A DNA stretch of 63,314 bases, the filler included, from Collodictyon triciliatum (taxonomy: Eukaryota), in NCBI GenBank assembly GCA_043381765.1. It is 10 parts of 10 records of this genome, joined end to end, with 100 filler letters (N's around TTAATTAATTAA, not from the genome) between each part and the next. Parts side by side here need not be neighbours in the genome. Positions count along the whole stretch, not along the records: positions 6,985 to 16,340 come from JBHJMP010004179.1; 9 more parts are not named here. One strand, given 5' to 3'. Of this stretch, positions 10,101 through 13,100 are shown one piece after another (within the stretch, counting starts at the first letter, position 1; the number at the start of each line of letters is the position of its first letter). The notes below the pieces were generated by a model. That model searched no databases. It was not told the DNA's origin and saw only the letters and a program-made list of their open reading frames with translations. Position numbers and translations under genes: made by a program.

Positions 10101-13100
10101 TATGGGCTCTTTAAGTGAAATCTGCAGAACTTTGGTGAATCCTCACATTTATAAGGATGGCATTCAGTATCTTAGCTCTCTTTTGCAGCTGACTCTACCA
10201 GGAATCGACCCAAACGACCCCAATAAAATGGTTGTTACGATGAAATTTTACTCTGGTTCGTTACACTTCAACTTCCCCTTCTTATTCCTTTCTTTCTTTC
10301 TTTCTTTCTTTCTTTCTTTCTTTCTTTCTTTCTTTCTTTCTTTCTTTCTTTCTTTCTTTCTTTCTTTCTTTCTTTCTTTCTTTCTTTCTTTTTCGTCTTG
10401 AAACGAGCCTTGTGTGCCCAATCTCATCGTATTATGTCAAAGAAATCAATTGCATTTCATTTTTGTCGTTTAGCCCTATTTGCTCTCGTCCCTCTCGAAT
10501 CTGCCGTGACCGACGAAGTGCCGAAGGAGAAAATCGACTTGCTGGTTTCCAGGATTCAAAAGTCGATGTTGCTGGGTGAAGCTGTCCATCCTTTATCAGA
10601 AGCTGGCGAGTTGGTTGATTCCTGGAGTAGAGAATGCTCTGAATTCTTTATGGACTTCTCTTTGCAATATACTGATAAGCTCCTGACTATTGTTTGTCAT
10701 TCTTATATCAACCTGATGTACACTCTCCATTCACATATTTATAACTTAGGAAGAGAAGAACAAACAATATTTAAATAATTTTAAAAAAATGAAACGAAGC
10801 CTCTCCTATATATGTGTTCTTTTTGGATTGATAATTATTATCCTATGCGCCAATTTTCCTGCATATCATTCAGTTCTCATTAATGGACTCGCCAAAGAAG
10901 AAAAAGACTCATAACGATGAACTCTACGAATCGTTTTATCAGGTCAGCCCCATCTATCATATACTTAACTTTTTTTTTTCATCTTAGCATTTTTATTTGC
11001 TATAGGCTATATGTATTATATGTGTCATGATTTTAATTAACTGCAACTAGCAGAAATAATGATTCGACTAAAAGAAATCATGTTCTACAGGAAAATATAT
11101 ACATGTTCTTCTCTCAAATGTCTCCCGGAATACATGCTGCATGCCTTCGTCGAGTTGTTGAATTTGTTCGATCCAACGTAAATAGTAACTGTCTGGAACA
11201 GGTTTGTTGAAATTTTTTTAGCAAAAACAATCTATCATGATAAAGGTGCTTATGAAAATGATACTTGAAAGTATATTATTGATTTTGAAAATTACATCAA
11301 GATTGGTTATTTGTGCTCTGCTGCAGTGGCTGCGTATCCCGAACAATCTCTTCGTCAATTATTGCCAATCTTTTTTGAAGCTCTACTGACGAGAAACAAA
11401 GGTTTAATTTCGAATGTTTTTCTCTTTTTTTTAGTCAAAAGTAAGCCAAAATACCGTGATGAAATAATATGCCATTCGTTATCTCAAACCGGCTCCTAAA
11501 ACAAAATTTAATACACTGCAATTGTTTTAGAGCTGAAGCAACTATCAGAGTCTGAGATGATTTGGAACCTTAGTTTGCTGAAAGATTGTATCTCCGAGGG
11601 TGGAAAATTTGTGATTAACTACAAGTGAATTTACTTTGACTTATTATTACTATTGTTGTTGGTATTATTATTATTATTAGTATTATTATTATTATTATTA
11701 TTATTATTATTATTATTATTATTATTATTATTATTATTATTATTATTATTATTATTATTATTATTATTATTATTGTGATTATTATTATTATTATTATTGT
11801 GATTATTATTATTATTATTGCAAAGAATGGAAGAATTTGAGCAAAATTATACATAAATAAACTATAAATGATAGTTGTTTTTTTTATACATTTTTCCAAT
11901 AAACGGGGCGTTAATCTCAAAACTTACATTCACATCAGAGAGCATATCGTCTCTTTACTGAGACAAACCCTTTCCTATGAAAAATCCCTTGGTGTCTGCA
12001 AGAAGGCTGGGAAAATCCTTCGAAAGATATCCTTGAATTATTGTATTTCACGTGTCATAATTGGAATAATTTTTAAAATGATAATTATTTGGTCAATATT
12101 TTATGATAACCTTTGACTCGATCACGTCCTCTCAACAACATCGGGTTGTTATGTGAACGACTATCGCTCGCTTCCCATCTCAATTCGGTCCTCTATTGGT
12201 GAATTCATTTCCATACAATAAAACGCAAGCGTCTTTTGTAGCTTTAAATTATAATATTCACCATTTTTATAATACTATTGTCTACACATTTAAATAGAGT
12301 ATAAACGCTATCCATGGATGTGCTGGGGAGTCTTCTTCAAGTATGAGGACTCAGAGATGTCATGGCACATTCCAGTTAACATTCATTCTCTTTATAATTG
12401 CTAATACCACGATTTTCCTCCTTGAATGCACTGACTAAAAACTTTATATCTATAACGTTCAGAATCAAGAGGAGATTAGCTTTGTCGACGAACTAACAAC
12501 AGAGTTTCTTTTACCCACGCTCTCATTCTTGGATGAGGTTGTTCAAAACATCGAACGGTATAGCAACATTCATTTGGTTTTCAATGACCTTCATCATTTC
12601 TCATTTCTGTTTCGGTTCTAATGCACAAAATATGACTTTGACCACCACAGAAGGGAAACTAGTGATTATTCGAAAGACTCTGTATGGAAGAAACTTGCTG
12701 TCATGAAAAACTATGTGAAAGGAACCGTAGAAGTCCTTCCTGGATGGGGAAATACTCCTTATCCAGAAAATTCAAGGTTTCAGATAACTATAATCATTCT
12801 TGTAAATAATCACCCGTCATTTTTTTTTGATTGCCTGCCATAGCTCATTCTACCTGGCAATATCGTGTATCTTTACTTCTCCCCCAATATGATGTTTGAA
12901 TATCGTAGATTTTCCTCACAGCTTCGTCAAAACGTCCATCTCATGTCCGATGGTATCACTTTCTCATCATTCGATGATGATAAGGCAGAAAACATATCGG
13001 TGAGGATGGCTAACCTAGTTCACAAGCTGTTCCTTCAGGTCCAGACGAACTCACCAGATGATATAAGGACACTCTTGTTGGTGTTTAAGGTAAGTTGCCT

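Follow-up and report, generated by a model that had tools for sequence, protein, structure and literature searches.

An RNA-supported U12-type AT-AC intron in the PA200/PSME4 gene of Collodictyon triciliatum

Introduction

Does Collodictyon triciliatum, a freshwater protist of the CRuMs, carry in its PA200/PSME4 gene an AT-AC intron of the kind removed by the minor spliceosome, whose known pathway is outlined in a review (PMC3584512), and does the TTTGA-type motif near the end of that intron reveal a branch-site system altered in the manner of Physarum polycephalum? In Physarum, according to a preprint (bioRxiv 10.1101/2020.10.12.336362), U12 reads GCAAAGAA, 417 of 625 AT-AC introns contain TTTGA, and CCTTRAC is kept in only 20 of 3,648 introns with a perfect donor. 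An original prediction, made from the DNA alone, had proposed such an intron and considered a variant branch site possible. Here, both proposals are examined by spliced alignment, RNA contigs, snRNA searches and pattern counts over the whole assembly.

Results

The PA200/PSME4 gene and its homologues

The gene lies on contig JBHJMP010004179.1 (G000:C4179), positions 6985-16340 of the window, by which we mean the whole stretch of 63,314 nucleotides that was analysed, spacers included (Table 1). The spacers, N44-TTAATTAATTAA-N44 (6885-6984, 16341-16440 and seven more), connect unrelated contigs, so that adjacency across them is meaningless. As the protein guide we used P0002, a PA200 homologue named Diphylleia rotans in EukProt and the sole homologue among 13 candidates, which at full length matches human PA200 with an E-value of 1.5e-166; by hand count on that alignment, the site of the AT-AC intron corresponds to human H723/L724. 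Spliced alignment to P0002, in which GT-AG, GC-AG and ATATC-AC introns were permitted, gave a model of 31 introns and 1329 stop-free codons. On the exons, two of 19 pieces match PF16507 (HEAT_PSME4_mid) over the cut-off and three more weakly, and the spliced product is 52-54% identical to Diphylleia proteins but no more than 29% to the six that rank next among the 151 proteins compared, which points to a collodictyonid or related CRuMs protist. Between 7522 and 16063 the major-class donors are very loose past GT, and several introns are full of simple repeats (TTA, TTGTA, TTTC).

Table 1. Features of the PA200/PSME4 locus and two minor snRNA genes; positions are those of the window unless a locus is named.
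Feature	Position	Strand	Basis
PA200/PSME4 gene, 5' ~three quarters (contig ends 16340)	7181..16150	+	spliced alignment, PF16507, 52% identity to P0002
Candidate U12-like GT-AG intron, donor GTATCCAA	7767..7973	+	spliced alignment, motif, U12 pairing
Upstream exon, ends on codon boundary	11939..12026	+	spliced alignment; RNA contigs (X4 record 6, X2 record 2)
U12-type AT-AC intron, 99 nt, phase 0, in frame, one TGA	12027..12125	+	motif scan, RNA contig, spliced alignment
U12 5' splice site ATATCCTT	12027..12034	+	motif; pairing with U11
Branch site CCTTTGAC, presumed branch A 12116	12110..12117	+	motif; pairing with U12
AC acceptor, 9 nt past branch A	12124..12125	+	motif; RNA contig
Downstream exon, 73 nt, then GT-AG intron 12199-12297	12126..12198	+	RNA contig; spliced alignment
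GC-AG intron in PA200, predicted	13698-14052		spliced alignment
U6atac, single copy, CC variant GCCGA	L002:1501-1616 (G000:C2465:9630-9745)		complementary to diverged U4atac
U4atac, diverged	L004:602-729

An AT-AC intron joined in RNA

The coordinates and motifs of the predicted intron, from its start to the spacing between branch A and 3' end, were verified. Its donor agrees at 8/8 positions with the U12 5' splice site RTATCCTT, against 2-6/8 in the other 30 introns of the gene; the branch region, ACCTTTGAC, agrees at 6/9 with a TTCCTTRAC-like consensus, and the in-frame TGA falls inside the branch motif. As had been claimed, no AG is available to the downstream exon, AG being absent from 12030 to 12200. 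The donor 8-mer on its own occurs six times in the window (both strands) and so is not rare; the evidence is carried by the composite of donor, CYTTRAC and AC, observed once against 0.02 per order-2 resampled window (300 resamplings), together with the RNA junction.

RNA contigs from four runs (X1-X4, of seven listed in all) were aligned. The expected junction, 12026^12126, was recovered in a single contig of one of these four runs, the aquatic metatranscriptome X4, and contigs of this kind give no splicing rate; the contig skips 99 nt, from AT to AC, continues over the next GT-AG intron, has a depth of 5.66 and 72 letters on its short side, and is unambiguous. When nine placements of the intron (-4 to +4) were tried, only AT..AC yielded the same mRNA. 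A contig of run X2 keeps the intron while the upstream GT-AG intron is already spliced, as expected if the AT-AC intron is removed late, this being one contig that yields no rate; X1 and X3 have no coverage of the intron. Four GT-AG joints of the model are likewise present in RNA contigs. At the predicted GC-AG intron, runs X1 and X3 have loose ends at 13697 that agree with the exon beginning at 14053.

Homology gives a concordant picture. Spliced alignment to P0002 selects this intron as the sole AT-AC intron among the 31 and crosses it without a gap, in line with the claim that the downstream translation continues the PA200 homology; moreover, the spliced form outscores read-through in 69 of 70 scored homologues, with one tie and none favouring read-through, and 130 of 145 alignments spanning the junction are gap-free within six residues. 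These results show that 12027-12125 is, with very little doubt, a genuine, RNA-supported U12-type AT-AC intron in PA200/PSME4. Since there is no GT-AG solution, predictors confined to GT-AG introns will mis-annotate the gene, as foreseen, and gene models of Collodictyon triciliatum need AT-AC-aware prediction.

Another intron of the same gene, 7767-7973, has a perfect TTCCTTAAC at 7938-7946 that forms 8/8 pairs with U12 and places the branch A (A7945) 28 nt ahead of the acceptor. This acceptor beats the AG just behind the motif in 43 of 56 scored homologues (nine worse, four ties). Judged by its motifs, it could be either a weak U12 intron or a U12-derived one in conversion to U2.

Components of the minor spliceosome

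Genes for U11, U12 and U6atac are present in the genome, together with a probable U4atac gene and a 25K-type domain. U12 (72.1 bits), U6atac (75.7) and U11 (55.3) are all over their Rfam cut-offs, and in the one U12 that the search recovered the box is the canonical GUAAGGAA. U4atac reaches 47.4 bits against a cut-off of 53 (E 1.7e-5) and has an imperfect Sm site; it forms with U6atac an extended duplex of -32.2 kcal/mol, and stem II of each deviates from the Rfam consensus. In PF18036, which we take to be the U11/U12-25K type and which was the only minor-specific protein family searched, one exon scores 30.5 bits, over the cut-off. The proposal that the organism keeps a U11/U12 spliceosome is thus upheld for the minor snRNAs, U4atac scoring under its threshold but being complementary to U6atac.

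Nucleotides 8-4 of U11 pair with donor positions +4 to +8 of the PA200 intron (four Watson-Crick pairs, one wobble), and the U12 box pairs with six of the eight positions of the branch site (four Watson-Crick, two G-U), leaving branch positions -7 and -8 unpaired. For U6atac, pairing is possible at +4, +5 and, weakly, at +8, with mismatches at +6 and +7. Its box change from AAGGA to GCCGA was considered as a novelty and rejected, being already described in section 16 of PMC2396436; this section lists the CC variant ([GU]CCGA) in Trichoplax, cnidarians, Reniera, Acanthamoeba, Physarum, Physcomitrella and oomycetes, and its authors found it hard to account for the variant and allowed that it might be ancestral. 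A DNA and core-motif search of the assembly, which may be incomplete, found no second U6atac (AG-type paralogue).

Branch-site types across the genome

Pattern counts over the whole assembly covered introns of ~66-141 nt, chance matches included, a length class that holds 14 of the 31 PA200 introns. The perfect donor with an AC acceptor gave 28 rows with CCTTRAC and 28 with CTTTRAC; with the C-less DTTTGAC there were 14 rows against 12 in the control, and coding-like flanks at one of the 14. The GT-AG U12 pattern gave 23 rows against 32 in the control (4 of 19 distinct sites colinear in Pfam), and among other introns with U12 signals like those of the PA200 intron, Pfam matches were colinear across the junction for 6 of 33 flank pairs. 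Bias affects the reversed control (in pooled flanks, ATATCC occurs 274 times and CCTATA 103 times), so that no excess over it is used as evidence, and the codon-score filter, trained on the PA200 gene alone, is weak: it passes 11/24, 7/27, 7/19 and 6/28 sites and misses the real intron L051.

Candidates were curated by their flanks. Both flanks are colinear by computed comparison for L014, L065, L069 and L075, with CCTTRAC, and for L053, L072, L051 and the PA200 intron, with CTTTRAC; the flanks of L051 join TTBK residues 172/173. One flank is in Pfam for L006, L021, L026 and L030, whereas L019, L020, L032 and L037 were accepted on flank motifs recognised by eye. With paralogue pairs counted once, the set holds eight CCTTRAC and five CTTTRAC introns (n=13), with the branch A 8-17 nt from the end and most commonly 9, as in PA200. 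A term search of a mouse/human table (PMC6717393, supplement file 1) gave CCTTRAC 621 and CTTTRAC 86 of 707, and in this file CCTTTGAC itself occurs in CNEP1R1 of both species. The frequency of CTTTRAC, 5/13 here against 86/707 in mammals, differs with a Fisher p of 0.016, in a set that is small, partly curated by eye, drawn from an A+T-rich genome and inclusive of the intron that prompted the comparison (without it, p is ~0.05 by hand estimate).

Several curated loci deserve mention. L006:1501-1611 and L021 (minus strand) are glutamate dehydrogenase paralogues with a common AT-AC intron and CCTTAAC; L051:1501-1623 and L032 (minus strand) are tau-tubulin-kinase-like genes with a common phase-0 AT-AC intron and CTTTAAC. 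A search of mammalian minor-intron supplements gave neither GLUD1 nor TTBK2. L053:1501-1623 is an EXO1-like gene whose AT-AC intron ends 17 nt past the branch TTCTTTGAC; in the mammalian table (PMC6717393), EXO1 has a GT-type U12 donor. L047 and L049, each with one plausible flank, lie within or across ordinary GT-AG introns and were dropped before the count. In the curated ~66-141 nt class, AT-AC introns (12) outnumber GT-AG introns (4), unlike in mammals. This seems to resemble the situation in several lineages poor in U12 introns where, according to PMC2846911, AT-AC introns equal or exceed GT-AG ones.

We also considered relaxed donors as a consequence of the CC-variant U6atac. The pattern ATATCCV + TCYTTRAC + AC gave 67 rows against 32 in the control; among the matches listed (30 loci of the 67 rows), 28 sites were examined and six had coding-like flanks against a null of 19%, and the idea was rejected as a general trend. 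AT-AC candidates with off-consensus donors are L095 (minus strand), L100, L101 and L106, with ATATCCGT, ATATCCAT, ATATCCGA and ATATCCCA, respectively; the flanks of L095 resemble an ion-channel pore, a weak match (E 0.16).

Weighing the alternative readings

With these counts, the suggestion of a Physarum-type transformed system, in which the branch consensus of the lineage would be TTTGA, recognised by a U12 that has changed along with it, in an expanded intron set, becomes highly improbable. The motif coincides with the central part of the branch site in Physarum, its distance from the intron end falls within the 9-12 nt window, the share of CTTTRAC exceeds that of mammals, and Physarum likewise has a CC-variant U6atac (PMC2396436, in the section cited above); yet the sole U12 found is unchanged, CCTTRAC is at least as common as CTTTRAC (8 of the 13 curated introns), the C-less form barely differs from its control, and the 28 CTTTRAC and 14 C-less rows of the ~66-141 nt class stand against the 417 TTTGA introns that the preprint gives for Physarum. 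The variant branch system thus did not hold up: the branch motif is a one-base variant tolerated through wobble, possibly with a slightly higher frequency in this lineage.

A small number of AT-AC introns belong to the U2 type. That the present one should be such, or should have been handed to the major spliceosome with TTGAC serving as a YTRAY branch, is likewise hard to credit: TTGAC does fit the U2 branch consensus, CTTTGAC also occurs near the 3' end of the GT-AG introns 9528-9667 and 12558-12650, and U6atac pairs poorly with the donor, but no other intron of the gene has its full U12 donor match, the branch-to-acceptor distance is short and lacks a pyrimidine tract, and the minor snRNAs are present in the genome. 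Least credible of all is that there is no intron, with 33 extra codons read through and an amino acid placed at the TGA, or with the retained form as the main one, as a length divisible by three, the single TGA and the unspliced X2 contig might suggest, given the spliced junction in X4, the absence of in-frame stops from all 1329 spliced codons and a better read-through score in 0 of 70 homologues.

Discussion

Our preferred reading, to which we assign a probability of about 90%, is that the intron is an AT-AC intron of the ordinary kind, taken out by a conventional minor spliceosome, on which it would depend, in a collodictyonid-like freshwater protist of the CRuMs. Following established minor-spliceosome biology, the U11/U12 di-snRNP would bind the donor (+4 to +8) and branch site jointly, with GUAAGGAA reading CTTTGAC through two G-U wobbles and bulging A12116. 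The U4atac/U6atac.U5 tri-snRNP would then enter and U6atac displace U11, its pairing with the donor confined to +4, +5 and a weak pair at +8. The acceptor would be the first AC, which lies 9 nt past the branch A. Since such a U6atac could not recheck +6 and +7, donor specificity would have to be carried by U11 and its proteins. Retention adds 29 codons and then TGA, so we propose that slow splicing could only reduce PA200 output.

The intron itself is ordinary. PSME4 was not found in eight supplement files of PMC6717393 nor in the supplement of PMC11347168, which leaves it outside the mammalian minor-intron genes listed there, and our literature search found no report of a U12 intron in PSME4 or AT3G13330, nor of a minor spliceosome in CRuMs. 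By term search, the text of the 3000-genome survey PMC10639083 does not name Collodictyon, Diphylleia or CRuMs, and its searched supplement does not contain Collodictyon, Diphylleia, Rigifila or Mantamonas; the full species list lies beyond these. A deep-branching lineage (Diphylleia relatives, CRuMs) is thereby added to the map of minor-spliceosome retention, as is a further genome with a CC-variant U6atac, together with RNA-verified ATATCCTT splicing.

A more speculative reading, which we regard as rather unlikely but worth stating, is that this lineage represents the state before a Physarum-type transformation, with CCTTRAC drifting to CTTTRAC (~40% against 12% in mammals) by wobbles tolerated on an unchanged U12 and a CC-U6atac blind to +6/+7. 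If so, intron drift would precede snRNA change, U11 alone would keep the ATATCCTT donor, and the presence of CC in a CRuMs relative, Amoebozoa, oomycetes, a moss and early animals would make CC the likelier ancestral form of U6atac.

Compared with the known CC-variant U6atac genes, the one described here has GCCGA for AAGGA, was found in single copy and still pairs with U4atac and U12; it comes from a Diphylleia-related lineage, which is absent from the list in section 16 of PMC2396436. With Physarum, Collodictyon shares a CC-variant U6atac and the placing of TTTGA 9-12 nt before the 3' end, but lacks the compensating change in U12, keeps CCTTRAC at least as common and gives no sign of thousands of introns. 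The closest likeness is to the canonical systems of animals and plants: the same donor, a CYTTRAC branch near the 3' end and an AC acceptor in the intron, and a canonical U11 5' end and U12 box in the machinery, from which it departs in a U6atac of the CC variant rather than AAGGA and, against mammals, in a CTTTRAC branch that may be more frequent here.
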